Virus genome (UHGV): UHGV-0178511
Strand: one strand, 5' to 3'
DNA: 35,205 bases
Source: a virus
The notes under the pieces are model-generated. The model saw nothing but the letters and a program-made list of their open reading frames with translations, was not told the origin of the DNA and did not search any database. Position 1 is the first letter of the stretch; every line of letters starts with the position of its first letter. Position numbers and translations under genes: made by a program. Positions 8,161-35,205 of the stretch are shown piece by piece.

Positions 8161-8166
8161 GCAAAT

Positions 8167-11128: not shown

Positions 11129-11145
11129 TGGGGGAGAGGGAAGTC

Positions 11146-13461: not shown

Positions 13462-13820
13462 ACGAATATCAGTTTGTGCTTCCATACCCGCCGTCGGTGA
13501 ATACCTACTGGCGAAGACGGGGAAGCCAATATTACATAAGCGATAAAGGCCAGAAATACCGAAAAGACGTTCAGCAAATCATCCGCCAACTCAAGTTAGA
13601 CATTTTCACCAAATCACGACTCCGTATCAAAGTCATCGCAGACGTTCCAGACTCCCGCCGCCGCGACCTCGACAACATCCTGAAAGGTTTACTCGACTCC
13701 CTTATCCACGCCGGATTTGCGGAAGACGACGAGCAATTCGATGACATTCGCGTAATTCGTGGTGTGAAAGTACCAGGCGGACGGCTTGGAATAAAAATCA
13801 CCGAACTGGAGAACGCATGA
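13458..13820 (+). CDS. rusA: RusA Holliday-junction resolvase
   Basis: 120 aa; PDSRRRDLDNILKGLLDSLIHAGF parallels E. coli RusA [24 protein letters not shown]. Confidence 0.9.
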   Translation: MNEYQFVLPYPPSVNTYWRRRGSQYYISDKGQKYRKDVQQIIRQLKLDIFTKSRLRIKVIADVPDSRRRDLDNILKGLLDSLIHAGFAEDDEQFDDIRVIRGVKVPGGRLGIKITELENA

Positions 13821-14005
13821 ACGCCACAATTCAAACGATACCAGAGCTTCTTATCCAGACACGAGGCAATCAGACCGAAGTGGCAAGGATGCTTTCCTGC
13901 GCAAGAGGAACAGTGCTCAAGTACAACCGAGACAGCAAAGGCGAGCGTCACGTAATAGTTAACGGCGTCCTGATGGTCAAACAGGGCAAGAGGGGAAGAC
14001 GATGA
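13817..14005 (+). CDS. ninH: NinH-like small DNA-binding protein
   Basis: GNQTEVARMLSCARGTVLKY HTH; resembles lambda NinH. Confidence 0.65.
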   Translation: MNATIQTIPELLIQTRGNQTEVARMLSCARGTVLKYNRDSKGERHVIVNGVLMVKQGKRGRR

Positions 14006-14625
14006 GACTAGAAAGCGTAGCTAAATTTCATTCGCCAAAAAGCCCGATGATGAGCGACTCACCACGGGCTACGGCTTCTGACTCTCTTTCCGGTACTGAT
14101 GTGATGGCTGCTATGGGGATGGCGCAATCACAAGCCGGATTCGGCATGGCTGCATTCTGTGGTAAGCACGAACTCAGCCAGAACGACAAACAAAAGGCTA
14201 TCAACTATCTGATGCAATTTGCACACAAGGTATCGGGGAAATACCGTGGTGTGGCAAAGCTCGAAGGAAATACTAAGGCAAAGGTACTGCAAGTGCTCGC
14301 AACATTCGCTTATGCGGATTATTGCCGTAGTGCCGCGACGCCGGGCGCAAGATGCAGAGATTGCCACGGTACAGGCCGTGCGGTTGATATAGCAAAAACA
14401 GAGCAGTGGGGGAGAGTTGTCGAGAAAGAGTGCGGAAGATGCAAAGGCGTCGGCTATTCAAGGATGCCAGCAAGCGCCGCATATCGCGCTGTGACGATGC
14501 TAATCCCAAACCTTACCCAACCCACCTGGTCACGCACCGTTAAGCCGCTGTATGACGCTCTGGTGGTGCAATGCCACAAAGAAGAGTCAATCGCAGACAA
14601 CATTTTGAATGCGGTCACACGTTAG
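14002..14625 (+). CDS. Q: Late-gene antiterminator Q (lambda type)
   Basis: 207 aa, MRLESVAKFHSPKSPMMSDSPRATASDSLSGTDVMAAMGMAQSQAGF...; recalled as essentially lambda Q. Confidence 0.95.
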   Translation: MRLESVAKFHSPKSPMMSDSPRATASDSLSGTDVMAAMGMAQSQAGFGMAAFCGKHELSQNDKQKAINYLMQFAHKVSGKYRGVAKLEGNTKAKVLQVLATFAYADYCRSAATPGARCRDCHGTGRAVDIAKTEQWGRVVEKECGRCKGVGYSRMPASAAYRAVTMLIPNLTQPTWSRTVKPLYDALVVQCHKEESIADNILNAVTR

Positions 14626-14667
14626 CAGCATGATTGCCACGGATGGCAACATATTAACGGCATAATA

Positions 14668-14696
14668 TTGACTTTTTGAATAAAGTTGGGTAAATT
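14668..14696 (+). promoter_or_regulatory. Late promoter pR' (with Q-binding/qut region)
   Basis: TTGACT, 17-nt spacer, TAAATT; surrounding sequence matches my recollection of lambda pR'. Confidence 0.7.
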
Positions 14697-14702
14697 TGAC
14701 CC

Positions 14703-14896
14703 AACGATGGGTTAATTCGCTCGTTGTGGTAGTGAGATGAAAAGAGGCGGCGCTTACTACCGATTCCGCCTAGTTGGTCACTTCGACGTATCGTCTGGAA
14801 CTCCAACCATCGCAGGCTGAGAGGTCTGCAAAATGCAATCCCGAAACAGTTCGCAGGTAATAGTTAGAGCCTGCACAACGGTTTCGGGATTTTTTA
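14703..14896 (+). ncRNA. 6S-type short late transcript ending at tR'
   Basis: About 194 nt from the predicted pR' start to tR' (aatcccgaaac...gtttcgggat plus TTTTTTAT at 14837-14896), same length as lambda 6S RNA. Confidence 0.6.
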
Positions 14897-15447
14897 TATC
14901 TGCACAACAGGTAAGAGCATTAAAGAACTGGCAAAGAGCTTAACGGTCTGCGAAAGCATTTTTTAGTGGCACAGCTGGCCGGTACAACTGAGTGCTCTTT
15001 CCGGTGTGGTGAATGCGCAGGCTGATGCGCGCAGGAGAGCTTCGGAAGAACAAGGTGCCTGTATACAAGCCGGAGATCAGCGCCGGCCACCACAGCCAAA
15101 TCCACCCAGAGCAAAACCGTTGTTCATCCTTACCATTCCCTCAGTATTTTGGGCTACAACCCTCAGCCCATTTTTTAAAGCGTACTTCCACCAAGAACTA
15201 GACCTAACCAACTCATTGCTGACACTCTGTGGATACGGTTGTCTAGTGCGCTTTAAAAAAGAAAACCCAGCATCAATGGCTGGGCTTCGTGATATGACCG
15301 GCATGTATTGTTGGCGCAATCCACGCCTGATTTGCTCATGAATGCGGTCACGAACAAACCCGTTACAAATCAACCGTAACCCGGATTTGTTCAAGCGACC
15401 ATATCCATAATTCCTAATTTGAACAGATCCCCTTCTGGGGGTAAGAC

Positions 15448-15771
15448 ATGAAGATGCCAGAAAAACATGACCTGTTAGCTGCCATTCTCGCGGCAAAGGA
15501 ACAAGGCATCGGGGCAATCCTTGCGTTTGCAATGGCGTACCTTCGCGGCAGATATAATGGCGGTGCGTTTACAAAAACAGTAATCGACGCAACGATGTGC
15601 GCCATTATCGCCTGGTTCATTCGTGACCTTCTCGACTTCGCCGGACTAAGTAGCAATCTCGCTTATATAACGAGCGTGTTCATCGGCTACATCGGTACTG
15701 ACTCGATTGGTTCGCTTATCAAACGCTTCGCTGCTAAAAAAGCCGGAGTAGAAGATGGTGGAAATCAATAA
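15448..15771 (+). CDS. S: Class I holin S with dual-start motif
   Basis: 107 aa beginning [17 protein letters not shown] (Met1-Lys2-Met3 as in lambda S107/S105). Confidence 0.95.
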
Positions 15772-16231
15772 TCAACGTAAGGCGTTCCTCGATATGCTGG
15801 CGTGGTCAGAGGGAACTGATAACGGACGGCAGAAAACCAGAAATCATGGTTATGACGTCATTGTTGGCGGAGAGCTATTCACTGATTACTCCGATCACCC
15901 TCGCAAACTTGTCACGCTAAACCCCAAACTCAAATCAACAGCAGCCGGGCGTTACCAGCTTCTTTCCCGTTGGTGGGATGCCTATCGTAAGCAGCTTGGC
16001 CTGAAAGACTTCTCTCCGAAAAGCCAGGACGCCGTGGCACTGCAACAGATTAAAGAACGTGGCGCTTTACCGATGATTGATCGCGGTGATATTCGTCAGG
16101 CTATTGACCGTTGCAGCAATATCTGGGCTTCACTGCCGGGGGCTGGTTATGGTCAGTTCGAGCATAAGGCTGACAGTTTGATTGCAAAATTCAAAGAGGC
16201 TGGCGGAACGGTCAGAGAGATTGAGGTATGA
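15755..16231 (+). CDS. R: Endolysin R (lambda-type lytic transglycosylase)
   Basis: 158 aa, [51 protein letters not shown]... Confidence 0.95.
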
Positions 16232-16665
16232 GCAGAGTCACCGCGATTATCTCCGCTCTGGTTATCTGCATCATCGTCTGCCTGTCATGGGCTGTTAATC
16301 ATTACCGTGATAACGCCATCGACTACAAAGAGCAGCGCGATAAGGCCGCATCCACAATTGCTGACATGCAGAAGCGTCAACGTGATGTAGCAGAACTCGA
16401 CGCAATATACACAAAGGAGCTTGCTGATGCTAACGCGACTATCGAAAGTCTCCGTGCTGATGTTTCTGCTGGGCGTAAGCGCCTGCAAGTCGCCGCCACC
16501 TGTGCAAAGTCAACGACCGGAGCCAGCAGCATGGGCGATGGAGAAAGCCCAAGACTTACAGCAGATGCTGAACTCAATTATTACCGTCTCCGAAGTGGAA
16601 TCGACAAGATAACCGCGCAGGTTAACTACCTGCAGGAGTACATCAGGACTCAGTGCCTGAAATAA
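16228..16665 (+). CDS. Rz: Rz inner-membrane spanin
   Basis: N-terminal TM segment ([16 protein letters not shown]) and coiled-coil; follows R with ATGA overlap. Confidence 0.9.
16421..16612 (+). CDS. Rz1: Rz1 outer-membrane lipoprotein spanin embedded in Rz (+1 frame)
   Basis: Lipobox LLGVSAC then Pro-rich [13 protein letters not shown]; entirely within Rz in another frame. Confidence 0.7.
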
Positions 16666-16695
16666 TTTTTTTGCAAATCACAAAGTCCATTTAAT

Positions 16696-16751
16696 GAGCC
16701 TCGCGATGCGGGGCTTTTTGCAATAAATGCGTACCGCAACGCATGTTTTTT
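16696..16751 (+). terminator. Two tandem intrinsic terminators downstream of the lysis cassette
   Basis: gagcctcgc-gat-gcggggct plus TTTTT, then atgcgt-accgca-acgcat plus TTTTTT. Confidence 0.5.
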
Positions 16752-16866
16752 ACACCGAACCTGCCCCTTTGGAATGGGCCTTTGAGGATACCAGTTAGTG
16801 CTGGCGAGCCTCGGTGGGCTGGTTTCCTGTGCGGCAAAGGTTCATTTCAAATGGTAGGTAAACGTT

Positions 16867-17388
16867 ATGAATATCGTGCCACTTAATTACAAAGGTGAAA
16901 TTGTCAGTTTCAACACTGATGGTTGGATCAACGTCACAGGTGTTGCTGAGAGATTTGGGAAACGCATTGATAACTGGATGCGTTTGGCAGAAACGCTTGA
17001 ATACGTTCGTGCTTTAGACGAAGCGTTGACCGGGAAAGAATCTCAAATTTTACATCCCTCACAATCGAGGTATGTAAAAACCAGCAAGGCACGAAAGGAC
17101 AGGGGTGGTGGTACGTGGCTACATCCAAAACTTTCAGTTGCATTTGCCCGTTGGTGTGATGCTCGTTTTGCTGTGTGGTGCGACCTGCACATTGATAGTC
17201 TGCTTCGCGGTGAACTGACTGAGCAGCAGAAATATGAGCAAGCATGTCGCATTCGCGATGACCGTAAATCAAAAGCCAGCAATGGGGCAAGAGAGATGGC
17301 TCGCTGGCGATGGGATAAGCCGGTTATTGAAGCAAATGTCGAGTACTGGCGCGAGCAACTGCAGTTGACTCTCGATATCGCTTGCTGA
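16867..17388 (+). CDS. KilA-N domain protein
   Basis: N-terminal KilA-N-like pattern (FNTDGWINVTGVAERFGKRIDNWMRL...LHPKLSVAFARWCDARF). Confidence 0.65.
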   Translation: MNIVPLNYKGEIVSFNTDGWINVTGVAERFGKRIDNWMRLAETLEYVRALDEALTGKESQILHPSQSRYVKTSKARKDRGGGTWLHPKLSVAFARWCDARFAVWCDLHIDSLLRGELTEQQKYEQACRIRDDRKSKASNGAREMARWRWDKPVIEANVEYWREQLQLTLDIAC

Positions 17389-17734
17389 TGGCAAACGCAA
17401 AACTGCGTTATCGGAAAAATCAAAGCATTACGAGAACTGAGCAACAGCTATCCATTACAAAGCCCATCTACGGGTGGGCTTGATAATGAAACCGTGATTT
17501 ACATCCCCACAATCCGGGTATGTAAAAGATAGTTCAGGCGAGAACAGATTTAACTAAATCTGTGCACCACCAGTTGCGGCAGTACAGCGAAACAACCCAA
17601 GCCAGTAAGTGGGGAAATAACACTGGCAGCCACTGAAAGATGAACCTCCTGCCTTATGGCAAAAAAGATTCTTTGTGGTGGCGGACTGATGGAAAGACAT
17701 CCTAATCAAGCAACCACTCTACAGGGTCATAATT

Positions 17735-18106
17735 ATGAACGACCAGCAAATCGAAAAAGAAATCGTTGAGAAAGGCAAAACGGCACCGCGAGTTACGCCA
17801 GACCATATCGAAGGAATTATTGCTCAGGAGGCATATTTCACAGCAGAGGATGGTGCCTTTGGCAAAGCCATAAAAGCGAAACATACTGGCGGAGAGGTAA
17901 ACTACCAGCCGCACGAATCACTTTCTCTGCTGACGTTCTGCGTCCTGGTGCTGCGCAACGGCTTCACCGTCACCGGAGAGAGTGCCTGTGCAAGTCCGGA
18001 AAATTTTGATGCAGAAATTGGTCGGAAGATTGCCCGGCAGAATGCTGTAAACAAAATCTGGATGCTCGAAGGTTACTTGCTGAAGCAGAAGCTAAGCGAA
18101 CAGTAG
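17735..18106 (+). CDS. Hypothetical phage protein (possibly Sf6 gp66 / N4 gp49-like family)
   Basis: 123-aa ORF with RBS; family assignment is a weak recollection. Confidence 0.45.
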   Translation: MNDQQIEKEIVEKGKTAPRVTPDHIEGIIAQEAYFTAEDGAFGKAIKAKHTGGEVNYQPHESLSLLTFCVLVLRNGFTVTGESACASPENFDAEIGRKIARQNAVNKIWMLEGYLLKQKLSEQ

Positions 18107-18209
18107 TTATTACAAAAGCCATTCCTTACTGAGTGGCTTTGATAATGGCTTATACCCTACACGGGATAACTTAACTGATATCCCTTTTAACGGATAAACG
18201 GAGCCAACA

Positions 18210-18452
18210 ATGGCAGAGATTATTCCCATGACTGAAGAACAGAAATTCCAGTTAGAGATTTACAAACTGGTCATGAACCAGAACGCAGCCGCAGAAGAAG
18301 CATTTCAATTCATTGGCACTGACGAGCTGAAGCTTGAGCTATTCAAAATTCACTTCCAGTCAGGTGGCGCTAATTCAGATATCACGACCCGCACTATCGA
18401 AGCGGTGCGTAAATCGAAGGAAGCGTTAGACCTGTTCACTACCGGAGCATGA
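18210..18452 (+). CDS. Hypothetical protein
   Basis: 80-aa ORF with RBS (aacggag) upstream of ATG. Confidence 0.45.
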   Translation: MAEIIPMTEEQKFQLEIYKLVMNQNAAAEEAFQFIGTDELKLELFKIHFQSGGANSDITTRTIEAVRKSKEALDLFTTGA

Positions 18453-18487
18453 TGCTCAGCCTGAAATAACAACTAAGTGAGATGAAT

Positions 18488-18976
18488 ATGGCAGCACCAA
18501 AGGGCAACCGATTTTGGGAGGCCCGCAGTAGTCATGGGCGAAATCCTAAATTCGAATCGCCTGAGGCGCTGTGGGCAGCTTGTTGTGAATACTTCGAGTG
18601 GGCTGATGATAACCCGCTATGGGAGGGTAAGGTATTTTCATATCAGGGAGAAATAATTAAGGCTAATGTCCCTAAGATGCGAGCCATGACTATTTCAGGA
18701 TTGTGTACCTTCCTTGATATCACCAGGCAAACATGGGGAACCTTCCGGTCAATGGAAGGTTTTTCTGACGTCACATCACGAGCGGAAGACATCATCTACG
18801 ACCAGAAATTCTCTGGCGCAGCCGCTGACCTTCTCAACGCTAACATCATCGCCCGTGATTTGGGCCTCAAAGAGCAGTCGCAAGTTGAAGACGTGACACC
18901 TGATAAGGGAGATCGCGATAAGCGACGCTCTCGTATCAAGGAGCTATTCAACCGTGGAACTGGACGCGATTCTTGA
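18488..18976 (+). CDS. terS: Terminase small subunit (P22 gene 3-like)
   Basis: [46 protein letters not shown]...; 3' end overlaps terL. pac site expected inside but not confidently located. Confidence 0.85.
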
Positions 18977-20453
18977 TAACCTGAGCGACGAAGAGCAAAT
19001 AGAATTGCTCGAGCTACTCGAAGAAGAAGAGAACTACCGGAACACACACCTGCTATATGAATTTACGCCATACAGCAAACAGCGTGAGTTCATCGACGCC
19101 GGGCATGACTATCCAGAGCGCTGTTTTATGGCTGGTAACCAGCTTGGTAAGTCATTTACTGGTGCTGCTGAAGTCGCGTTTCACCTTACCGGGCGTTATC
19201 CGGGCACAAAAGGCTATCCTGCTGATGGTAAATATGGCGGGGAGTGGAAAGGTAAGCGTTTCTATGAGCCTGTTGTCTTCTGGATTGGTGGCGAGACAAA
19301 CGAGACTGTAACCAAAACGACTCAACGCATCCTGTGCGGTCGTATCGAAGAGAATGATGAACCTGGCTACGGTTCCATACCGAAAGAAGACATCATTAGC
19401 TGGAAGAAGTCTCCTTTCTTTCCGAACCTTGTTGATCATCTTCTGGTTAAGCATCACACGGCTGATGGCGTTGAAGATGGCATTTCAATCTGCTACTTCA
19501 AACCATACTCGCAAGGCCGTGCTCGCTGGCAGGGTGACACAATCCACGGCGTGTGGTTTGACGAAGAGCCACCATACAGCATTTATGGCGAAGGTCTTAC
19601 CCGTACCAACAAATACGGGCAATTCTCAATTCTGACGTTTACCCCGCTGATGGGGATGTCTGACGTTGTTACCAAGTTCCTGAAGAACCCCAGCAAGTCG
19701 CAGAAAGTGGTCAACATGACCATCTATGACGCTGAGCACTATACCGACGAGCAGAAAGAGCAAATCATCGCATCCTATCCAGAGCATGAGAGAGAGGCGC
19801 GTGCTCGCGGTATTCCTACGATGGGTAGCGGTCGAATCTTCCAGATACCGGAAGAGACGATTAAGTGTCAGCCGTTCGAGTGTCCGGATCACTTCTACGT
19901 AATTGGCGGGATGGATTTCGGATGGGATCACCCGCAGGCGCAGGTTCAGCTTTGGTGGGATAAGGACGCAGACACAATCTACGTTTCACGCGTGTGGAAG
20001 GCGAAAGAAAAGACAGCCGTTCAGGCGTGGGGAGCTGTTAAATCATGGGCGCATAAAGTGCCAACCGCATGGCCTCATGACGGAAACCAGCATGAGAAGG
20101 GCGGCGGTGAGCAGCTCAAAGGGCAGTATGCAGACGCTGGATTTATGATGTTGCAGGAGCATGCGACATGGCCTGATGGCGGTAACGCTGTGGAGCCTGG
20201 CATCACTGAATTGCGCGACATGATGCTCGATGGTCGCTTCAAAGTATTCAACACCTGTGAGCCATTCTTTGAGGAGTTCCGCCTCTATCACCGTGATGAA
20301 AACGGGAAAATCGTCAAGCTTAACGACGACGTTCTCTCAGCCGTTCGCTATGCATACATGATGCGCCGCTTCGCCAAAATGATGCGCGACATCAAAAAAC
20401 CAAAAGAGAAAAAGATACCAGCCCCAATCAGGCCCATCGCACGGAGAACTTAA
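18954..20453 (+). CDS. terL: Terminase large subunit (P22 gene 2-like)
   Basis: 499 aa, [58 protein letters not shown]... Confidence 0.95.
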
Positions 20454-22619
20454 ATGGCCGACGAAAACAGACTCAATTCCATTCTGTGTAAGTTTGACGC
20501 GGACTGGATGGCGAGCGATGAAGCCAGAACCGAGGCGACAAATGACCTGTATTTTAGCCGAGTGTCGCAATGGGATGACTGGCTATCAAACTACACTACC
20601 CTGCAATATCGCGGACAATTCGATGTTGTTCGCCCGGTGGTCAGGAAACTGGTAGCAGAGATGCGCCGGAACCCTATCGACGTTCTCTTCCGACCCAAAG
20701 ACGGCGCTAATCCTGATGCTGCCGATGTGTTGATGGGAATGTATCGTACTGATATGCGCCATAACACGGCAAAGATTGCCGTTAACGTTGGCGTTCGTGA
20801 GCAGATAGAGTCCGGCGTTGGTGCATGGCGTCTGGTCACCCAGTACGAAGACAACGACCCAACAAGCAACAATCAGGTAATCCGACGCCTGCCAATCCAT
20901 GAAGCCTGCTCGCACGTCATATGGGACGCCAACAGCAAGCAGATGGATAAGAGCGACGCTAAGCACTGCACGGTGATTAACGCTTTGTCACGCAATGGCT
21001 GGAAAGAGTTCGCAGAGGATTACGGTATTGATCCTGATACCTTGCCATCTTTCCAGAATCCGAACGATACATGGCTGTTTCCGTGGGTATCGAATGATGT
21101 CGTCTACGTCGCTGAGTATTACGAGGTCGAAGAGAAGAAAGAGAAAGTCTTCATCTACCGCGACCCGCTGACAGGTGAGCCGGTCAGCTATTACCAGCAG
21201 GATATCAAAGACGTCATCGACGACCTGGCTAATCGTGGATTCATTAAGGTAGCAGAGCGTAAGGTCAAGCGTCGGCGTGTGTATAAGTCGATCATCACCT
21301 GCACGCAGATACTGAAAGACCGCGAGAAGATAGCCGGAGAGCATATCCCAATCGTTCCTGTGTACGGCGAATGGTCATTCGCTGGTGACAAGGAGTGCTA
21401 CGAGGGCGTGGTAAGGCTGACGAAAGACGGTCAACGCCTTCGTAACATGATCATGTCGTTCAACGCCGATATTGTTGCTCGTTCACCGAAGAAGAAACCG
21501 ACCTTCTTCCCTGAGCAAATCGAAGGCTACGAATACATGTACGGTGGAAATGATGACTATCCGTACTATCTGCAGAACAGGACCGATGAAAACGGTAACG
21601 ACCTGCCGATTGGTCCAATCTCCTACATGGAAAACCCTGAAGTGCCGCAAGCCAACGCTTACATGCTTGAGGCTGCCACCAACGCAGTGAAAGAGGTGGC
21701 TAGTCTTGGTGTGGATGCGCAGGCAGCAAATTCTCAGGTCGCTTTCGATACCGTCAATCAACTGAACATGCGGGCAGACCTTGAGACATACGTGTTTCAG
21801 GATAACCTTGCTACCGCAATGCGACGTGATGGCGAGATTTATGCCTCAATGGTCAATGATATTTATGACGTTCCTCGTCATGTAACGCTGACACTTGAAG
21901 ATGGTAGCGAGAAAGACGTTCAACTCTACGCGCAAGTTGTAGATTACCAGTCCGGTAATGTGGTCACACTCAACGACATTCGCGGTCGCTATGAGTGCTA
22001 TACCGACGTTGGACCATCCTTCCAGAGTATGAAGGAACAGAACCGCGCAGAGATTCAGGAGTTACTCACCAAGGTTCCGCAAGGTACTCCAGAGTTCCAG
22101 ATGCTGATGTTGCAATACTTCACGCTGCTTGACGGTAAAGGCGTCGAGATGATGCGAGAGTATGCGAACAAGCAACTGGTGATGATGGGGCTGAAGAAAC
22201 CAGAAACACCTGAAGAGATGGAGATGGTACAACAGGCGCAACAGCAGCCGCAGCAGCCATCAGCAGAGCAAATTCAGGCGCAGGGTATCCTTCTGCAAGG
22301 TCAGGCTGAATTGCTCAAGGCAGAGAACCAACAGGCGCAGATTCAGGTTGAAGCTGCCAAGGTTGAAGCTCAAAACCAACTCAACGCCGCGAAGATTGCA
22401 GAAATCTTCAACAATATGGACCTCGACAAGCAGGCAGAACTGCGTGAGTACCTCAAGCTCGTAGGTCAATTCCAGCAACAGCGCAGCAAAGATGCTCGTG
22501 CTAACGCTGAGCTGCTTCTTAAAGATGCAGACCAGACTCATTCACAACGCATGGATTTCGCGAATCTTATGCGTCAAGTTCAAATCCCCTCCGGCGGAGT
22601 AGCCGAGACACCTCAATAA
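20454..22619 (+). CDS. Portal protein (P22 gene 1-like)
   Basis: 721 aa with C-terminal Gln-rich coiled-coil barrel ([50 protein letters not shown]). Confidence 0.95.
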
Positions 22620-22632
22620 GAGAGAGTTAATC

Positions 22633-23544
22633 ATGGACCAAACCACCGACATTCAGGCTTCTGAAGAATTAACCCTGCCCGGCAATCATGCAGCGGCATC
22701 TGCTGATGGCTTAGTTGTCGATAATGCCAACGACAGCGCAGGTCAGGAAGAAGGCTTCGAGATTGTCCTGAAAGACGATGAGAAACCAAAACAAGACCCG
22801 GCAACTAATGCTGAATTTGCCCGTCGCCGCATCGAACGCAAACGCCAGCGTGAGCTTGAGCAGCAGATGGAAGCGGTTAAGCGTGGAGAATTGCCGGAGC
22901 ACCTGCGGGTGAACCCTGAGTTACCAAAACAACCAGACCCTAACGATTATCTTTCCGAAGATGCACTGGCTAAGTACGACTATGACCAGAGCCGCGCACT
23001 GGCCGCCTTCCAGCAGGCAAACAGTGAATGGCAGATCAAGGCTATGGACGCACGAAGCCAGGCTGTCGCCGAGCAGGGTCGCAAAACTCAGGAGTTCACC
23101 CAGCAATCAGCGCAATACGTCGAGGCAGCCCGTAAGCACTACGACGCAGCGGAAAAGCTCAATATCCCTGACTATCAGGAGAAAGAGGATGCATTCATGC
23201 AACTGGTGCCGCCAGCAGTCGGTGCCGACATCATGCGCCTCTTCCCGGAGAAATCTGCCGCTCTCATGTATCACCTTGGTGCTAATCCTGAGAAAACACG
23301 CCAGTTGCTGGCGATGGACGGGCAATCCGCGCTGATTGAAATCACTCGACTGTCAGAACGTTTAACTCTCAAGCCTCGAGCTAAGCCTGTTTCAGAAGCC
23401 CCGTTACCTGATGAACCCATTCAGGGACACGCTGTTGCTGCAAATATATCTGCGATTGAAAAGCAGATGGAAGCGGCAGCAAACAAAGGGGATGTAGAGG
23501 CATACCGCAAGCTTAAGGCGCAACTGAATAAAGGAATTCGATAA
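22633..23544 (+). CDS. Scaffolding protein (P22 gene 8-like)
   Basis: 303 aa; long stretches match my recollection of P22 gp8 ([68 protein letters not shown]). Confidence 0.9.
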
Positions 23545-24839
23545 TGGCATTAAATGAAGGTCAACTGGTCACGTATGCTCTGGATGAAATCATCGAAACC
23601 GTCCAGAACCTGACGCCAATGGCGTCCAAAGTGACAAAATACACCCCTCCGGCAGAATCCATGCAGCGTTCAAGCAACACCGTGTGGATGCCTGTTGAGC
23701 AGGAAGCGCCAACCCAGACTGGCTGGGATTTAACTGGCAACGCAACCGGGATTCTGGAACTCTCCGTGAAGTGCAACATGGGCGATCCGGATAACGATTT
23801 CTTCGAGCTTCGTGCAGATGACCTGCGTGATGAGCGTTCTTACCGTCGCCGCATCCAGGCATCCGCCAAAAAACTGGCGAATAACATTGAGTCAGCGATT
23901 GCCAAACAGGCAACTGAAATGGGCTCGCTTGTTGTTCACGATACCCGCGCAATTGGTCCATCTACTGGCCTGTCTGGCTGGGATTTTGTGTCTGATGCAG
24001 AGCGCCTGATGTTCTCCCGCGAGCTAAACCGCGATATGGGCATCAGTTACTTCCTGAACCCTGACGATTACCGCAAAGCAGGCCGCAACCTGGTAGATGG
24101 TGACATCTTCGGGCGCGTTCCTGAAGAAGCGTATCGCAACGGTACCATTCAGCGTCAGATTGCTGGCTTTGATGAAATTCTTCGCTCACCGAAACTTCCG
24201 GCTGTTACCAAGTCAACCGCTACTGGTGTAACTGTTTCTGGTGCGCAGAAGTTTAAGCCGCAGGCATACACCCTTGATACCGATGGTAACAAAGAGAACG
24301 TCGACAACCGTGTTGCAACGGTGATCGTATCCTCCACCACCGGATTTAAGCGCGGCGACAAAATCAGCTTCACTGGTGTGAAATTCCTGTCTCAGATGGC
24401 GAAGAACGTGCTGACTGATGATGCGACTTTCTCAATCACCCGTGTGATCGATGATACTCACATCGAAATCACGCCGAAGCCGATTGCGCTTGATGACTCT
24501 TCACTGACAAAAGAAGAGAAGGCTTACGCTAACGTAAACACCTCTCTTGCTGATTCCACTCCGGTAAACGTTCTGAACGTGGCAACAACCACCGCTAACG
24601 TGTTCTGGGCTGATGACTCAATCCGCCTGCTGTCTCAGCCGATTCCGGTAACCCATGAACTGTTTGCTGGCATGAAAACGTCTTCCTTCAGCATTCCTGG
24701 TATTGGTGTTAACGGCATCTTCGCAACGCAGGGTGATATCAATACTCTGTCTGGTAAGTGCCGTATTGCTGTGTGGTATTCAGCATGTGCTGTACGGCCA
24801 GAGGCAATTGGTATTGGTCTGCCTAACCAGACCGCGTGA
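23544..24839 (+). CDS. Major coat protein (P22 gene 5-like)
   Basis: 431-aa ORF starting [23 protein letters not shown], in P22 gene 5 position. Confidence 0.95.
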
Positions 24840-24847
24840 TAACCAGA

Positions 24848-24870
24848 GGGAGCTTCGGCTCCCGTTTTTA
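24848..24870 (+). terminator. Intrinsic terminator/attenuator after the coat gene
   Basis: gggagc-ttcg-gctccc hairpin followed by gTTTTTa, 9 bp after the coat stop. Confidence 0.6.
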
Positions 24871-24883
24871 TCTGGAGACAAGC

Positions 24884-25108
24884 ATGACACACATGATCTT
24901 TCGTCATGGCGACATGAAGAAGTGGAAAGGCGTTGGCTACGACTTTGAAATCGTGAAAGCCGAAGAGCTTCAGGAATATCTGGATGCTGGTTGGTTTTCA
25001 CATCCTGATGACCTTTTGAAGGATGTTGCAGAGCCAGAAGAAAAACAGCGTAAAAAGCCTGGTCGAAAACCTAAGGCGGCAGCAGATGAACCTGACAACG
25101 AAGGGTGA
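24884..25108 (+). CDS. Small acidic/basic-tailed ORF between coat and gp4
   Basis: 74 aa ([34 protein letters not shown]...[10 protein letters not shown]); P22 has a short ORF here. Confidence 0.4.
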
Positions 25109-25586
25109 TTTAGTCCTTGCGGCATTACGTAAGCTCGGTGTGGCATCAAATGCCACGTTAACCGATGTCGAACCGCAGTCTATGGAAGACGGCGTCAACG
25201 ACCTTGAAATGATGATGGCTGAATGGCTTGGAGGTGATGCGTCACCTGGTATCAACGTTGGCTACATTTTCGCTGATGCAGATGTCGCTCCGGATCCTGG
25301 CGATGAGCACGGTTTGTCAAATAACGCTATCAATGCCGTCATTTTCAACCTTGCCTGCCGCATTGCTCCAGATTATGCGCTGGAAGCGTCTGCAAAACTT
25401 ATAACCACTGCCAGATACGGGAAAGAGCGACTCGTCAAACTGTCTGCAATGGACAGAGCAAAAGCCGCTAAATGTAAGTCCGGTTATCCAAACCGTATGC
25501 CTGTTGGTAGCGGTAATCAGTTGGCGAAGTGGAACGGTTGGAATTACTTCCACCGGAAGGAACCTTGCGATAACGGGAGCGAATAA
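25086..25586 (+). CDS. Head-completion/tail-adaptor protein (P22 gene 4-like)
   Basis: Start at internal Met ([33 protein letters not shown]...) giving about 166 aa like P22 gp4. Confidence 0.85.
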
Positions 25587-27005
25587 ATGCCGATTCAGCA
25601 ACTTCCGCTTATGAAAGGTGTCGGCAAAGACTTTCGAAACGCCGACTATATCGACTATCTGCCAGTGAATATGCTGGCAACCCCCAAAGAAATCCTCAAC
25701 AGCAGTGGATATCTTCGCTCATTCCCTGGCATTGCCAAACGCTCTGATGTGAACGGTGTATCTCGCGGCGTCGAGTACAACATGGCGCAGAGTGCTGTTT
25801 ATCGCGTGTGTGGTGGGAAGCTTTACAAAGGCGAAAGCGAAGTCGGTGACGTCTCCGGAAGTGGTCGCGTATCAATGGCGCATGGTCGGACATCTCAGGC
25901 TGTAGGCGTTAATGGTCAACTGGTAGAGTATCGTTATGATGGCACGGTTAAAACCGTCTCAAACTGGCCTACAAACAGCGGATTCACGCAGTATGAGTTA
26001 GGCTCGGTCCGCGACATTACGCGCTTACGTGGGCGTTATGCGTGGTCAAAAGACGGAACTGATTCATGGTTTATCACTGACCTTGAAGACGAATCGCATC
26101 CTGACCGCTACAGCGCACAATATCGTGCCGAGTCGCAGCCTGACGGCATCATCGGAATCGGAACATGGCGAGACTTCATCGTCTGCTTTGGTTCATCGAC
26201 GATTGAATATTTTTCCCTGACAGGTGCAACCACCGTTGGTGCCGCTTTGTATGTCGCCCAGCCATCACTGATGGTGCAGAAAGGCATTGCCGGAACCTAC
26301 TGCAAAACGCCGTTTGCTGACTCGTATGCGTTCATCAGCAATCCGGCAACAGGCGCGCCGTCTGTGTACATCATCGGCTCCGGTCAGGTATCACCAATCG
26401 CCAGCGCGAGCATTGAGAAAATCCTCCGCTCCTACACTGCTGATGAACTGGCTGATGGCGTGATGGAGTCTCTGCGATTTGATGCGCATGAGCTGCTGAT
26501 TATCCACCTGCCGCGCCATGTTCTTGTTTACGACGCATCTTCAAGCGCCAATGGTCCGCAATGGTGTGTGTTGAAAACAGGCCTGTATGACGATGTGTAC
26601 CGCGCTATCGACTTCATTTACGAAGGCAATCAGATAACGTGCGGCGATAAGCTGGAGTCCGTGACCGGGAAATTGCAATTCGACATCAGCAGCCAGTACG
26701 ACAAGCAACAGGAACACCTGCTGTTTACTCCACTGTTCAAAGCGGATAACGCCAGAGTGTTCGACCTTGAGGTTGAATCGTCAACTGGCGTTGCGCAGTA
26801 TGCTGACCGCCTTTTTCTCTCTGCAACCACTGACGGCATCAATTACGGGCGTGAGCAGATGATTGAGCAGAATGAACCGTTCGTTTACGACAAACGCGTT
26901 TTGTGGAAGCGAGTAGGGCGCATCAGGAAAAATGTCGGCTTCAAATTGCGCGTTATCACGAAGTCACCTGTCACTCTGTCTGGCTGCCAGATAAGGATTG
27001 AGTAA
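25587..27005 (+). CDS. Tail hub protein (P22 gene 10-like)
   Basis: 472 aa, [49 protein letters not shown]... Confidence 0.9.
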
Positions 27006-27853
27006 TGGCGGATTCGAATCTCAATGTGCCGGTAATCATCCAGGCTACGCGGCTCGACACATCAGTCCTTCCACGCAATATCTTCTCGCAGTCATATCTG
27101 CTGTACGTTATCGCACAGGGCACTGATGTTGGTAACGTGGCTAACAAAGCCAACGAGGCCGGACAGGGCGCTTATGATGCACAGGTCAGGAACGATGAGC
27201 AGGATGTGATTCTCGCTGACCATGAGCAGCGAATTTCTGCTGCGGAAGCAACGCTTGTTAATCATGAGGAGCGAATCAGCCAGGCAGAATCAACTCTTCA
27301 GGACCATGAAACACGAATAGCTCAGAATGAAAGCGATATTTCGTCGCTTGACACAAGAGTTCAGTCGCTGGAGTCGCAGGTTTCAGACCATGAAACGCGC
27401 ATCGATGCTCTGGAGTATGCCACTACTCGCAAGAAGTCGGAGGTTGTTTACTCTGGCGTATCTGTAACCATCCCGACAGCGCCGACCAACCTTGTTAGCC
27501 TACTGAAAACGCTCACGCCGTCATCCGGCACGTTGGCACCATTCTTCGACACCGTTAACAACAAGATGGTTGTGTTCAACGAGAACAAAACCTTGTTCTT
27601 CAAGCTGTCGATCGTCGGGACGTGGCCCAGCGGAACCGCAAACAGGTCAATGCAGCTAACCTTTTCCGGCTCTGTTCCTGACACACTGGTCAGCAGTCGT
27701 AATGCGGCGACAACAACCGACAACATCCTGTTAGCTACGTTCTTCAGCGTGGATAAAGACGGCTTTCTTGCCACAAATGGCAGTACGTTAACCATTCAGT
27801 CAAATGGGGCGGCGTTTACTGCCACAACCATCAAGATAATCGCGGAGCAGTAA
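27005..27853 (+). CDS. Tail needle protein with trimeric coiled-coil and C-terminal knob (Sf6-type rather than P22 gp26)
   Basis: 282 aa; heptad-like repeats ([64 protein letters not shown]) then about 140 aa globular C-terminus. Confidence 0.8.
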
Positions 27854-28308
27854 TGATTCAGTTCAAACCAACGCGAAACATCGACCTGATCGAAGCAGTC
27901 GGAAATCACCCTGACATTATTGCCGGAAGCAACAACGGTGATGGATACGACTACAAGCCTGAATGCCGTTACTTTGAGGTGAACGTGCACGGTCAGTTTG
28001 GCGGCATTGTTTACTATCAGGAGATTCAGCCGATGACCTTTGATTGCCACGCCATGTACCTGCCAGAGATTCGCGGCTTCAGCAAGGAAATCGGGCTGGC
28101 GTTCTGGCGATACATTCTGACTAACACCACCGTTCAGTGCATCACATCGTTCGCTGCACGCAAATTCCGCCACGGGCAGATGTACTGCGCAATGATTGGC
28201 CTTAAGCGTGTAGGAACCATCAAGAAATACTTCAAAGGCGTGGATGACGTGACGTTTTACAGCGCCACACGCGAAGAATTAATCGACTTCCTGAATCACG
28301 GGAGATAG
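27853..28308 (+). CDS. Virion-associated protein in the P22 gene 14 position
   Basis: 151-aa ORF between tail needle and ejection proteins; assignment by synteny only. Confidence 0.45.
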   Translation: MIQFKPTRNIDLIEAVGNHPDIIAGSNNGDGYDYKPECRYFEVNVHGQFGGIVYYQEIQPMTFDCHAMYLPEIRGFSKEIGLAFWRYILTNTTVQCITSFAARKFRHGQMYCAMIGLKRVGTIKKYFKGVDDVTFYSATREELIDFLNHGR

Positions 28309-28310
28309 CC

Positions 28311-29003
28311 ATGTTATATGCATTTAAGCTGGGCAGAAAACTGCGCGGCGAGGAACCTTATTGCCCTGAAAAAGGCGGGAAAGGTGGCAGCTCTGATAAA
28401 AGCGCAAAGTATGCAGCAGAAGCTCAGAAGTATGCCGCAGACCTGCAAAATCAGCAGTGGCAGACGATCATGAAAAACCTTGCTCCGTTCACGCCGCTTG
28501 CGGAGCAGTATGTTAACCAGCTTCAGAATCTTTCCAGTTTAGAAGGTCAGGGGCAGGCACTTAATCAGTATTACAACTCTCAGCAGTATAAAGACCTTGC
28601 AGGGCAGGCGCGTTACCAGAGTCTTGCTGCTGCGGAGGCGACGGGTGGACTTGGTTCGACAGCCACAAGCAATCAACTGGCTACGATCGCGCCGACACTC
28701 GGTCAGTCTTGGTTATCAAATCAGATGAGCAATTACAACAATCTAGCAAACGTTGGGCTTGGTGCGCTGCAAGGTCAGGCAAACGCCGGGCAGACGTACG
28801 CCAACAACATGAGCAGCATTGCACAGCAAAGCGCAGCTCTTGCCGCTGCTAATGCCAATAAACCATCAAGTCTTCAGACTGCAATTAGCGGTGGCACGTC
28901 TGGTGCGATTGCCGGTGCAGGTCTTGCCAGCCTTTTGGGAACATCAACTCCTTGGGGCGCTGGCATTGGTGCTGGTATCGGATTGCTTGGCTCGTTGTTT
29001 TAA
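28311..29003 (+). CDS. Ejection/internal virion protein (P22 gene 7-like)
   Basis: 230 aa, Gly/Ala/Gln-rich with C-terminal hydrophobic Gly-zipper tail; synteny. Confidence 0.7.
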   Translation: MLYAFKLGRKLRGEEPYCPEKGGKGGSSDKSAKYAAEAQKYAADLQNQQWQTIMKNLAPFTPLAEQYVNQLQNLSSLEGQGQALNQYYNSQQYKDLAGQARYQSLAAAEATGGLGSTATSNQLATIAPTLGQSWLSNQMSNYNNLANVGLGALQGQANAGQTYANNMSSIAQQSAALAAANANKPSSLQTAISGGTSGAIAGAGLASLLGTSTPWGAGIGAGIGLLGSLF

Positions 29004-29012
29004 GGGGTAATC

Positions 29013-30344
29013 ATGGCTACTTGGCAAGGAACAAACGGCGGATTGTTGGCTGGTATCGGCGGCGTCAACTCAAACGCTCCGAGCGTAAATGACATCGGCA
29101 ATACGCTTCAGCTTATCAGGCAGAACAATGATATTGAGCGTTCAGGCGCTAACAATGTTGGGCTGACTGCTTTGCAAGGTCTTTCAGGTATTGCGGGTGT
29201 TTTTCAGCAGGAAAAGCAGGCTCAGCGGCAGAAAGAATTTCAGCAGGCGTACGCTAATGCTTATGCGTCTGGTGATCGCGGTGCTTTGCGTCAGTTGGCT
29301 ACTCAATATCCAGACCAGATTGAATCCGTTCGTAAAGGCATGGGATTCATTGATGAAGAGCAGCGTAATTCTATCGGCACCTTAGCGGCTGGCGCACGCC
29401 TTGCGTCATCGTCTCCAGAAGCAATGCAATCATGGCTGCAAAACAACGCCGGTGAGTTAGCTCGTGTTGGCGTTAATCCTCATGACGTCGCTCAGATGTA
29501 CCAACAGAACCCGCGGCAGTTCGGCGAATTTGTCGATCATCTGGGGATGAACAGTCTCGGGCCCGAAAAATACTTTGACCTACAGGATAAAATGCAGGGT
29601 CGCCAGGTTACCATGCGCGGTCAGGATCTGGATTCGCAAACCGCCGCTCGGAATCAGGCAATCACAATGCGCGGACAAGATATCCAGGCGAATTTAGGTC
29701 AGCAGCGCATTAATCTGGACGCAGAAACAAACCGCATTAACAACGAAAATAAGCGCCTTGACCGGATGCTATCAGCAGAAACTAACGACCTGAAGCGCCA
29801 GGAAATACAGAGCCGCATAGCAGCCAACAACCAGCAGTTGCAGCAGAAGCAGCAAGCGCTAAATGATGGCTACAAAGACGGCATCAACACCCTCACAACC
29901 AGCATGTTCACTCTGAACGATATCGTTAGTTCTCCTTCACTTAAGAGCATTACAGGCTTACGTGGAGTAATCCCCAACGTTCCAGGCTCACAGGCTGCAG
30001 ACACTCAGGCACGACTTGATACCTTTAAATCACAAGCATACCTGACAGCAGTTCAGGCCATGCGAGGCATGGGCGCACTTTCTGATGCCGAGGGCAAAAA
30101 GCTCGACCAGGCTGTTGGTTCGCTGCAGAACTCGCAGAGCGAGGAGTCCTTTCGTCGCAACGCTGGCGTCATCCTGAACACGCTCAACCAGAAGCGTAAT
30201 GAGGCGGTTGGTAAGTACGTTCAGCAAAACGGTATCAAGCGAGTGGAAGCGCCTCAGGCTTCTATAGATTACCTGAAGCAGCACCCAGAGCTGTCAATCG
30301 ACTTCATTAATCGCTACGGATATCTTCCATCTTTGGGGCAGTAA
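29013..30344 (+). CDS. Ejection protein (P22 gene 20-like)
   Basis: 443 aa, Gln/Asn-rich; synteny. Confidence 0.7.
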   Translation: MATWQGTNGGLLAGIGGVNSNAPSVNDIGNTLQLIRQNNDIERSGANNVGLTALQGLSGIAGVFQQEKQAQRQKEFQQAYANAYASGDRGALRQLATQYPDQIESVRKGMGFIDEEQRNSIGTLAAGARLASSSPEAMQSWLQNNAGELARVGVNPHDVAQMYQQNPRQFGEFVDHLGMNSLGPEKYFDLQDKMQGRQVTMRGQDLDSQTAARNQAITMRGQDIQANLGQQRINLDAETNRINNENKRLDRMLSAETNDLKRQEIQSRIAANNQQLQQKQQALNDGYKDGINTLTTSMFTLNDIVSSPSLKSITGLRGVIPNVPGSQAADTQARLDTFKSQAYLTAVQAMRGMGALSDAEGKKLDQAVGSLQNSQSEESFRRNAGVILNTLNQKRNEAVGKYVQQNGIKRVEAPQASIDYLKQHPELSIDFINRYGYLPSLGQ

Positions 30345-33113
30345 ATGGCTAATTACCGTGATTTGTTAGAGCAGGCTGGCGCACGTTACGGTGTGCCAGA
30401 AGGGTTGATGACTGCACTGGGTGCCAAGGAGTCTTCTTACAACCCTGCCGCAGTAAGCTCCGCCGGGGCTGTAGGATTGACTCAGGTCATGCCTGGGACA
30501 TGGCGTGATATGGGTTATACCGATGAGCAAATGCAAAACCCCGAATATCAGGCTGACGCTGGCGCGCGCTATCTGGCAAAGATGTACCAGCAGTTTGGTA
30601 ACTGGCGTGATGCTCTTCAGGCTTATCACGACGGTCCCGGCAACGTTATGAAGGCAAAGCGTGGTGAATATACGCCAGGACCTGAAGGCCGCGGTTACGT
30701 TGATGATCGCTTTGCTCAATGGGCGGGTGACCCGGTGACAGACTCAACAGTCGAACAGCGCGCCACCTCTGCAAAGGTACATCCTCAGCAAGACCCTAAC
30801 AACCCGTTTGCACAACTGGAAGCACAGTCATCCGAACAAGTATCGGCATCAGGTGTGCAGTCAGACCCAAATAATCCATTTGCTCAGATTGAGCAGCAGG
30901 CAGCCAGTCAGCAGCCACCTCAACCCGTAAGTTCTGTCGCACCGAAACCTGTTCAGCAACAAACAGTTAATCAGGCCAATAATGAACCAGCACGTGAAGA
31001 ACCATCATTGATGCAACAAGCTGGCGATTGGCTCACAGGTGGTCAAAGTGCAGGGCAAATTACAGAGCAGGCTGGTCGTGGTCTGGTAAACATACCATTT
31101 GACGTATTGCAGGGTGGCGCAAGTCTGATTAATGCAATCAGCCAGGGGCTTGGTGGGCCAAAAGTATTGGATGATGTCTATCGTCCAGTCGACCGACCGA
31201 CAGATCCTTACGCGCAAGCTGGAGAGTCAATAGGCGGTTATCTTGTTCCTGGAGCAGGTGTAACTGGAAACATGGTCATTGGTTCTCTCGCTGACGCGGC
31301 GAATCAACGGGGTGATTTTGCCGAAAATGCCGCTATTAATGCCGGACTTAACATTGCTACGCATGGCCTGATAAATGGCGTTACCCATGGTGTTCGTGGT
31401 GCATCAAATATAATTAGTGGCAATAAAACATCTGCACAGAGAGCGACCACTGCGGCAACAGAAACATCACCATTCTCCGGTACTGCGCCAACAGAAACAT
31501 CACCATTCTCCGGTGATGCCGCTGCAGCAACAAATCCTGCGGTTCATGCCGCAGAGGCAAGAGCAGCACAAGGTGTACCAATGACGCCTGCGACGAGGGA
31601 CCCAGAGGAGGTCGTCCGCACAGTAGCAGCACAAAAAAGGCCAAATCTCGCTTCATCGCTTGATGAACTAGATATCAATCCTCAGGCTGAAGTTCTGGAG
31701 TCTGCTGAAAGGCTTAATGTTGATTCATTACTCCCTTCACACTTTTCCGGGAACGAGCAATACAAGGCAGTTGAGCAAGCAATCAAGTCCCGTGCGGGTT
31801 CCGCTCTACGGGTGCAGGAAAATGAAGCAATCAGGCAACTAGCACAGGGCGCGGGGGAGATAATTGATCGCGTTTCCGGTGCAAAAGATGCTCTTGGTAT
31901 GAGCGACAAGTTTATTGATACGATCAATGGAAGAATGTCTGCGCTGATGAAACGAAGCGACCAGCTTTATCGCAATGTTGAAAAGGCGATGCCTGCAGGT
32001 GCAAAAATTGATGCGCCATCAACAAGGTCAATGCTCAAACAGGTGGCAGAAGATCTTGGCGGGATGAAAAACCTTGACCCTATTGAAAAGAGAGTCTTTC
32101 GGGCAGTTAATCCAGGCAAGAACGGCGCATTAACTTATGCAAATCTCAATAAGCAACGACGACTTGTTGGTGATGCACTTCATAAGAATTCTGGACCATA
32201 TAAAGATGCTGATCGCGCTGCTTTATCGAGGCTTTACGGTTCGCTCGCCGATGATCAAAAGGCGGCGCTGTCAGAGACAAATGCATTACGTGATTTTGAA
32301 GTTGCTCAGAGGCTTGTTCAGATGCGAAAAAGCATGGAAGAGCAAATGATTAATCTAACTGGCAGAACGCTGAACGGTGATGTTTCTCGCAAAGCAACTA
32401 CAGCACTACAGGCAATGTCGAAAGGCGATGCCAAAGGATTTCGTGAATTGATGCAAAACACGCCGTCCAGGAAGCTAAGAACCGAGCTACTGGGAACAGG
32501 TCTTCGGGATATGCTTTCGAACGGAAAACGTGGCGCTGATTTTAATCCTGCAGGGTTTGCTGACTGGTATCAAAACATGTTAGCAAACGGGCAGATGCGC
32601 AATCTTGCCCGACATTTACCAAAAGAGACTATGTCAGGTCTGAACGATGTATATAAGGTCGCAAAGGCTATCAAAGATGCAAAATCTTACGAGATAACTA
32701 CAGGAAGACTAAACGAGTTCGTCAAACGGTTTAATCGCGTCACTGCGGCAAATGAATTTGTTGCTAACCATGCCCAACGCATTGGCACTGCGGTTGGTTC
32801 AACTGTGTCAGGACCGTTCAGTGCAGTAGGTGCTGTTGCTGGGTCAGAAATTGGGGCAAAAGTCGCCAGCAAAATCAGGGCGATGGGCGGCGCTGAATCA
32901 ATTGAATCTGCAGAAAAGCTAATTAGCTCACCAGAATTCCAGAAAGCAGCAAGGCTGGCAGTAAAACAAGCACCAGAAAGCATCGTTGATACAACTGTAA
33001 GACGCTCTTCTGCTTGGCGCTCGTTTTACAACTCACTTCCAGAATCAGATAAGAAAACCATATCAAGGCTAGGCATCATGTACTGGATGAACAGTGATGA
33101 TAACCAGAAGTAA
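30345..33113 (+). CDS. Large ejection protein with N-terminal lytic transglycosylase (SLT) domain (P22 gene 16 position)
   Basis: 922 aa; SLT motifs [27 protein letters not shown] in the first ~120 aa; internal peptide repeats. Confidence 0.8.
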
Positions 33114-33130
33114 CGGAAAGCCACGGATGG

Positions 33131-33391
33131 TTAGCTGCTGTCTTTTTTATATAGCTCTTTGAGAGTATCAAAGACAATTTTCTTAACCATATCAGATTGT
33201 TGTTCTGCCATACGCTCTGCATCGTCAATGTAAACTGATGTAGAGCTTTGTTTATCCAATGATTCTTCAATCGCTGCAATTATCTCTGAGTTCAGCGACC
33301 TGTTATTCATCTTCGCACGCAGCTTAATTTTCGCGTGGAGTTCATGCGGAAGTCTCAAGTGAAACTGCGCCTCGTCGTATTTGCTGTACAT
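33131..33391 (-). CDS. mnt: Mnt-like ribbon-helix-helix repressor
   Basis: From the internal Met: FHLRLPHELHAKIKLRAKMNNRSLNSEIIAAIEESL...DDAERMAEQQSDMVKKIVFDTLKELYKK parallels P22 Mnt FNFRMPMEVREKLKFRAEANGRSMNSELLQIVQDAL...NDAERLADEQSELVKKMVFDTLKDLYKK. Confidence 0.8.
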   Translation of the reverse strand: MYSKYDEAQFHLRLPHELHAKIKLRAKMNNRSLNSEIIAAIEESLDKQSSTSVYIDDAERMAEQQSDMVKKIVFDTLKELYKKDSS

Positions 33392-33512
33392 CCTTGATGC
33401 CTCACCAGTTGGGTGGAATGGCATCGTAACCTACTGGATAAATACTCAATAGTACCATTTCGGTATGCAATCACATCATGGTTGCATCATATCATTCGTC
33501 TGGAGCAATGAA
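33392..33512. promoter_or_regulatory. Divergent mnt/tailspike intergenic region with candidate operator palindrome
   Basis: ATGCAA-N11-TTGCAT inverted repeat at 33465-33487, followed by TATCAT (-10-like) and GGAG RBS before the tailspike ATG. Confidence 0.4.
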
Positions 33513-35205
33513 ATGTCAGATATCACCGCAAATGTTGTGGTAAGCATGCCTTCGCAACTCTTCACTATGGCTCGTTCTTTTAAAGCCGTAGCCAATGGCA
33601 AAATTTATATCGGTAAAATTGACACTGACCCGGTAAATCCAGAAAACCAGATTCAGGTTTATGTGGAAAACGAAGACGGTTCTCACGTTCCTGTTTCGCA
33701 ACCAATCATCATTAACGCTGCTGGTTACCCTGTATATAACGGACAGATTGCCAAGTTCGTAACTGTGCAAGGCCATTCTATGGCTGTTTATGATGCATAC
33801 GGTGCGCAGCAGTTCTATTTTCCGAATGTGCTAAAGTATGATCCAGATCAGTTTAAGGGCAATCTCCTGAGCGAAGATCACTCACTTGGCGACTCTCTAG
33901 TCATGCATAACCCACAGTTTGTCGATAGCACATCGACCATTCTCTCAAAAAAGCTAACTATCGACCTGAGGACGCTTACAGACTACGGGTTTGCTGAGGG
34001 AAACACCGGTGCTCAGAACAAAGCTGCATTTCAGAAGGCTATTGATGATGCTACGTTGCCAACTGAGATTGTTATACCAGAGGGGGCGTTCATTGTTGAC
34101 CCTGGTATTACGATTAAGAATACTGTCACCATGATACGAGGTGCTGGCGCATATCAGTCCAGAATTTTCTCTACGGGTACAGCGGCACCGATAATCACGC
34201 AACAAGATGGGGTAATTACGTTCTGCGAGTTCAGGGACTTTGGTCTTGACGGAAATGGCTACGCAGCTAACGGCATCAGTCTTACTGAAGCCAACCACAT
34301 TAAAATAGAAAATATTGACGTGGTTAATACTAATAACAACGCAATATTAGTTAACGGTTACTCCATTGACATCATTGGGTGCCGGTTGTTTCAAAACGCC
34401 GGTAACGGTATTAATGTTGGTGGTTACTGCAATAATATTAATATAATCAACAGCCGTATCTATGGTAACGGAGCCGGTGGAGTTTTACTTACGCCAGCTT
34501 ACGCTGAGGGCGGTATGAGCGTCAGAGTTAATGGCAACAATATAGAGCAAAATAAGTTCTACGGACTTTTGGCTTACGGGGTTAAAGGCCTTAACCTTGA
34601 TGATAACTATTGGGAACGCAACGGTGAGATTGGTTACCAGTATAGTGTACCTGAGTCTATTACAGTACGTGCGGATATCCACCTTATCGCGAACAATTTT
34701 ACATTAATTCCTGACCTTTCAAAAATTAATGATACCGTATCTATTCGCGGGAATCAGCAGACCGCGATTGGCTACGCCAGCGCGCTACCTAACCAAGACG
34801 GATTTATTTTCACGAACTATGCGAAAAACCTGACGATTGAAAATAATCAGTTATTAGACGCATCGAAAGTGAATAATTTATTAGCAATGTACCACAATAA
34901 TCTTTCGTCCAAAGTTACTGACAGGCTATATCTTGCCAACAACACAGTGAACTCCATCGGATACGTTGGTAGTTATGACCCGGCGACACAAAACCCTGAC
35001 ACTGCGCATTTAATAGATATTGCGAACAGAGAGTTAACTGCTAACTATCTTGATCGAAATATGTTGCTCTGGACTGCGGCATCTGGAACTACAGGAACAT
35101 TGATAAAAACTCAAAACATCTATGCTGGTGGATTTGCCCCTATATTTCCAGACACCTGTTATCACTTAACCCATTACTGGCCTGCTGCCGCAGATATTCC
35201 CGTGG
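33513..35205 (+). CDS. Tailspike protein, 3'-truncated: P22 gp9-like N-terminal head-binding domain plus non-P22 parallel beta-helix receptor-binding domain
   Basis: N-terminus [59 protein letters not shown] matches P22 gp9; remainder has beta-helix repeats ([51 protein letters not shown]). No stop in window; last 25 codons lie in the terminal inverted repeat. Confidence 0.9.
35128..35204. repeat. Terminal inverted repeat, right copy (exact reverse complement of 1-77)
   Basis: 77/77 identity by manual reverse complement; base 35205 (g) is beyond what can be compared. Confidence 0.9.

Follow-up and report, generated by a model that had tools for sequence, protein, structure and literature searches.

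The window analyzed here is UHGV virus genome UHGV-0178511 at its full length of 35,205 nt, one strand, 5′ to 3′. Its two extremities carry the same short sequence in opposite orientations, and the 35,050 nt of unique DNA between them form the body of a temperate phage genome, for which phage database matches gave IME10 and HZ41 as the closest isolated phages. Gene and Pfam content was taken from a locus matching window positions 20345–35205 (L012) and from two loci syntenic with the left arm (L032 and L034). These loci contain a lambda-like early region, DnaB-type replication genes and lysis genes, together with P22-type portal, coat, needle and ejection proteins. In a search for an IS-free version of the whole prophage, the best complete genome covered 83% of the query at 97% identity, which is typical mosaicism. 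The coordinates of the features discussed below are collected in Table 1.

Table 1. Features at the two ends of the window and the core that they enclose
Feature	Position	Strand	Details
IS2-type copy A, last 76 nt	1..76	+	Element body lies to the left of the window; ends AAATCCA
Copy A, end of orfB	3-65		Last 20 codons plus stop TAG at 63-65 (frame translation)
Copy A, IRR (41 bp)	36-76		40/41 to published IS2 IRR
Predicted 5-bp target site, copy A	77-81		CTTGC
DUF2513 gene, 5′ part	77..465	-	ATG at 465-463; 129 native codons; Pfam DUF2513, E=6e-11
Unique core between the IS tips	78..35127	.	Almost whole P22-like (IME10/HZ41-like) prophage, early-left to tailspike
P22-type tailspike, 5′ part	33513..35128	+	538/707 codons; head-binding domain and beta-helix
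Predicted 5-bp target site, copy B	35124-35128		GCTGG
IS2-type copy B, last 77 nt	35129..35205	-	Element body to the right of the window, in the opposite orientation to copy A
Copy B, IRR	35169-35129	-	
Copy B, end of orfB	35202-35140	-	Stop at 35140-35142 (mirrors 63-65)

Several features inside the core deserve mention in their own right. A full-length match to the Rfam family Lambda_thermo (RF01804), the cIII thermoregulator element, lies at 5312–5370 on the minus strand (88.5 bits), as expected for a lambdoid early-left region. Two 35-nt direct repeats (9131–9165 and 9197–9231; 94% identical, 66 nt apart) fall inside a 299-aa gene overlapping the beginning of the DnaB-type helicase gene; they look like the origin iterons of a lambdoid replication gene. 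Further to the right, the plus-strand gene at 30345–33113 encodes a 922-aa protein that combines an SLT lytic transglycosylase domain with a P22 gp16-type ejection domain in the precomputed Pfam annotation. Within it, a 33-nt tandem duplication (31449–31514, 97% identity) would give an in-frame repeat of 11 residues. The 922-aa protein is rare, with 24 blocks in the contig index. In four loci (L003 54–2197, L008 7428–10588, L011 9609–12769 and L014 8773–11933), the early-left genes DUF1382/DUF1317 directly adjoin the gp16-like gene. Compared with the window, these remnants lack ~27 kb comprising the replication, lysis and head genes, and their tailspike gene is either intact or reaches the contig end.

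By direct comparison, positions 1–77 are the reverse complement of 35128–35204 with zero mismatches; the chance expectation of such a perfect 77-nt inverted pair in 35 kb is ~3e-38. The inverted match stops at 78/35127, and the last base of the window, 35205, has no counterpart on the left. A repeat search found no other inverted repeat of at least 25 nt, and no part of the 77-mer recurs elsewhere in the window. The arms of 85 nt at 96% identity that this search reported consist of the 77 perfect bases and eight ungapped positions beyond them, five of which match by chance. Both the minus-strand ORF that runs from 465 to 1 and the plus-strand tailspike ORF remain open across the repeat, where they read the same 25-residue peptide. 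A sequence-only reading of this DNA had described exactly this: a perfect 77-bp terminal inverted repeat with a sharp inner boundary at 78/35127, traversed in frame by two ORFs that acquire an identical peptide. Each of these observations holds.

We then compared the repeat with complete genomes. Of 5426 complete E. coli genomes, 3113 contained the 77-mer, at 8444 places on both chromosomes and plasmids, with up to 39 places per genome. Features annotated at the matches were "IS3 family transposase" or "IS3-like element IS2 family transposase." In E. coli ML35, the 77-mer spans the final 65 nt of a transposase CDS with a frameshift, together with the element terminus. The complete ML35 copy (L001, 1246–2576) is 1331 bp long and has CACTA as its flanking 5-bp target duplication; it shares 95.8% identity with the annotated K-12 IS2A, which is also 1331 bp long and has the duplication ATTAC. 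The ML35 copy matches both window ends at 100% identity: its last 76 nt match positions 1–76, and its last 77 nt match 35129–35205 read as the reverse complement. K-12 IS2A differs from the terminal 76 nt at four positions. Read on the transposase strand, the repeat gives a 20-residue C terminus, the stop codon and then ...GGGGCAAATCCA. These last 20 codons and the stop are identical to those of the full ML35 copy, whose OrfB contains rve, rve_3 and HTH_21 domains (Pfam) and for which a programmed frameshift is annotated. The published 41-bp IRR sequence of IS2 (PMC3299598) served as a reference, and in our own comparison with it positions 36–76 of the window matched at 40 of 41 nucleotides. 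The window end thus has the 41-bp length and the CA-3′ terminus of an IS2 IRR, and it occurs dispersed in many copies.

By its sequence, then, the repeat is the IRR end of a 1331-bp insertion sequence of the IS2 type (IS3 family). The resemblance to IS2 of Escherichia coli (IS3 family, IS2 group) extends to the length and the OrfA/OrfB programmed frameshift of the full copy, to the 19-residue end of OrfB followed by a 41-bp IRR that ends in AAATCCA, to the 5-bp target duplication seen in the reference copies and to the large number of copies per genome. The variant found here differs from K-12 IS2A at four of 76 terminal nucleotides, and 76 and 77 nt of it lie within the window at the two ends.

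This identification changes how the two open frames should be understood. The shared 25-residue peptide is an antisense reading of the 3′ end of the transposase gene. Two of the three antisense frames of the IS tip are open, so the fact that both neighboring genes stay open through it is unremarkable. The earlier description of the repeat as coding is right in that both ORFs cross it, but the real coding content lies on the other strand and is the C terminus of the transposase. Likewise, 77 bases do match, but only 76 of them belong to the mobile element. The base at 77/35128 is present in the uninterrupted versions of both genes and is target DNA; hence the IS contributes 76 nt. The 77th matching base is, as judged from those uninterrupted genes, a one-in-four coincidence between two target sites that are complementary at this position by chance.

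At the left end, the gene entered by copy A encodes a DUF2513 protein and is broken 41 nt short of its natural end. An intact 142-aa gene is present in L002 (2960–3388) and is 100% identical to the window from position 77 on. Downstream of it in L002 lie a small ORF, xis, int and the chromosomal gene ybhC. The DUF2513 fusion would be 186 aa long if its frame continued into a full IS copy, compared with 142 aa for the intact protein. Beyond the window itself, the left junction is implied by the lengths of the sister contigs described below. Other transposase insertions were found in the vicinity of DUF2513 genes. In L023 (848–1299; GCA_002110065.1), the DUF2513 protein is reduced to 78 aa by a transposase gene with rve_3/rve_2 domains. 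In strain PSS-16 (H71; NZ_AP027713.1, 1423005–1423920), the 77-mer lies ~0.6 kb from a piece of DUF2513, within a stretch where the listed features begin with DUF2513, include xis and end with a phage integrase arm-binding domain protein; that insertion differs from the one in the window. These independent events may reflect a recurrent target or chance.

At the right end, copy B breaks the tailspike gene 509 nt short of its natural end. Pfam identifies both Head_binding (E=1e-67) and Beta_helix in the part that remains. Intact tailspike genes of 2124 nt (707 aa) are found in L003 (3614–5737) and in L004, with 100% and 99.9% identity, respectively, to the window up to position 35129. Past this position, the intact gene continues with TAATTATTC..., an unrelated sequence that runs for 509 nt; the sequence of the uninterrupted site is GCTGGTAATTATTC. 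An acyltransferase gene, intS and tRNA-Arg follow the intact tailspike. If the fusion is read into a full IS copy, it ends after 595 aa, compared with 707 aa for the intact protein, and both fusions, if translated, would finish with an identical nonsense tail of 57 residues. In a separate 494-kb contig that carries the same 922-aa gene (L007, 13048–15031), ~2 kb without a called gene extends from Arc/Mnt to the acyltransferase gene; this gap, located where the tailspike is expected, may contain a decayed tailspike.

Sister assemblies bear on the tailspike junction. Among the matches listed are two such loci, with eight and one further similar places, respectively. The ENA contig k141_4173 (L012; 35,330 nt) comes from another sample. 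It matches window 20345–35205 at 100% identity over 14.8 kb, shares the tailspike junction and then has a G and 137 nt of IS that agree with the full copy throughout. The NCBI contig L013 (35,138 nt) is 99.993% identical and ends 2 nt before the junction. The sequence-only reading had proposed asking whether the repeat goes beyond 77 bp. It does: past the shared tailspike junction, L012 contains 137 nt of the element. The repeat is therefore longer than 77 nt, and the amount kept depends on the assembly. The length retained at this end is 78 nt in the window, 138 nt in the k141 contig and −2 nt in the NCBI contig.

The particular length of 77 nt was examined with a model genome. Its window core was joined at either end to a complete IS element with a 5-bp duplication and, beyond that, to the native flanks of L002 and L003; zero or four extra IS copies were added. 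At k=77, the unbranched de Bruijn path through this model is exactly window 1–35204; at k=55, 99, 127 and 141, the path has other ends. At k=141, the model yields 35,332 nt, compared with the 35,330 nt observed for the k141-named contig. Most likely, then, the repeat measures 77 nt because the assembler used a k of 77. The path predicted at this k has 35,204 nt as against 35,205 nt in the window, whose right end holds exactly 77 nt of IS. The extra base, 35205, would come from path extension or overlap trimming. Multicopy IS elements are known to complicate short-read assembly, and contigs stop beside them (PMC4558774). The window behaves like a de Bruijn contig that ends at collapsed repeats: the repeat length would equal k, its inner edge is sharp and its outer edge undefined, and the kept length varies from one assembly to another. 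Unlike such ends, it has the additional base 35205, which falls outside the plain unitig model.

Taken together, these data lead us to propose that the source genome contains a P22-like prophage struck by two 1331-bp IS2-type copies in opposite orientations. Copy A would have inserted in the DUF2513 gene with 41 nt left to its end and copy B in the tailspike gene with 509 nt left, and the two copies, near the edges of the prophage, each present their IRR to the core. Since the two IS copies are identical to each other and E. coli usually has several copies of the element, the assembler would stop at both; the contig would end one k-mer into the IS on either side, and the window would be this contig. 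The 77-nt repeat would then be composed of 76 nt of IS and one flanking base that is complementary by chance, with one more IS base at the right end. Directly outside the window would lie the complete bodies of both IS elements, as well as the gene pieces of 41 and 509 nt that are missing from it. We put the probability of this joint explanation, two inverted IS2-type insertions in a P22-like prophage and a contig break at k=77, at roughly 0.93, and consider both IS junctions to be real. Scans for exact patterns found the left junction in none of the viral, genome and metagenome contigs and the right junction in none of the genome and viral contigs, and junction-spanning BLAST found neither in any record of the 5426 complete E. 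coli genomes. The far-side junctions predicted from the target duplications CTTGC and GCTGG were absent from all 45 loci fetched.

The sequence-only reading had offered two explanations for the repeat, an invertible segment and an assembly-graph or foldback artefact. The tail-fiber segments of Mu (G/Gin), P1 (C/Cin) and p15B (Min) have short crossover sites, a serine invertase and alternative 3′ gene parts, and in a programmed switch of this type an invertase would flip the stretch outside the window that lies between the repeats and so exchange the 3′ ends of the tailspike and DUF2513 genes. The window does resemble these systems in having inverted repeats in a host-range gene of a temperate phage, with both frames open through the repeat. 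Unlike them, its repeat is the end of an IS2 element with a transposase stop codon on the other strand, and the two genes are merely truncated. The intact tailspike and DUF2513 genes run colinearly to their own ends, and the window ends do not have the form of inverted crossover sites at which a constant 5′ part of a gene is joined to one or another 3′ part. The peptide on which the idea was built is antisense to a transposase, both fusions stop after the same 57 nonsense residues, and two of three antisense frames would be open anyway. Moreover, neither a serine invertase nor any other member of a resolvase/invertase family was seen among the precomputed Pfam hits to called genes in the loci syntenic with the window arms. 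Programmed inversion therefore has next to no chance of being correct. The same proposal had placed int and att in the missing stretch; in relatives these functions do lie outside the window, but this is merely the usual prophage location. As for the second explanation, the contig was indeed broken at a repeat, as the multicopy IS tip, the L012 extension and the k=77 model all indicate, but not by foldback. The exact reverse complementarity of the ends and a length equal to a common assembler k-mer size would fit a foldback or chimera, in which the two ends had been joined to one sequence by error and the real genome had no IS at either site. A foldback would, however, duplicate adjacent unique sequence and not the end of a dispersed IS. 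In addition, an identical tailspike–IS junction followed by more IS is found in L012, which comes from another sample and whose name suggests a different assembler, and a third assembly (L013) breaks at the same spot. We regard foldback as extremely improbable. Terminal repeats of a linear phage genome were also considered and were rejected, as thousands of scattered sites on chromosomes and plasmids contain the 77-mer.

The remaining alternatives accept the two IS2-type copies and assign them a further role. Identical inverted repeats are the substrate required for RecA-dependent recombination, which could leave the 35-kb core in both orientations within the population without any program, and since the inner junctions would be unaltered, the contig would be the same in either state. 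We consider such recombination unlikely; it would supplement the explanation by two insertions and a k=77 break without replacing it, it would achieve no useful exchange of gene ends, as both genes are truncated, and as an IS-mediated rearrangement it would in any case be ordinary. In Tn5 and Tn10, inverted IS copies flank a segment, and the layout of the window invites the thought that the IS2 pair and the prophage core move as one composite transposon. This unit would have to use two inward-facing IRR ends, it was not found in another context in any collection searched, and two independent hits in one prophage provide a simple account; the odds of a composite transposon are accordingly minute. 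A broader version, in which the IS2 pair brackets an inverting or composite-mobile core in a lineage represented by several assemblies and the truncated tailspike is kept for a host function, strikes us as very unlikely. If it were true, the protein kept would consist of the head-binding domain, most of the beta-helix and a 57-aa tail encoded by the IS.

We conclude that the cause of the terminal repeat is an already known and ordinary one, IS2 insertions in a prophage combined with an assembly boundary. The locus resembles IS-disrupted, immobilized prophages of E. coli and Shigella in that a multicopy IS3-family element sits in a prophage structural gene, here the tailspike gene; against such prophages in general, nothing about it is distinctive. 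It also carries a caution, since a perfect terminal inverted repeat of k-mer size with open frames can mimic an invertible host-range switch. For the phage, the consequence of the IS2 insertion is that the P22-like prophage found here is without the last 170 residues of its tailspike, and for tailspikes of the P22 type such a loss should prevent the formation of infectious particles.
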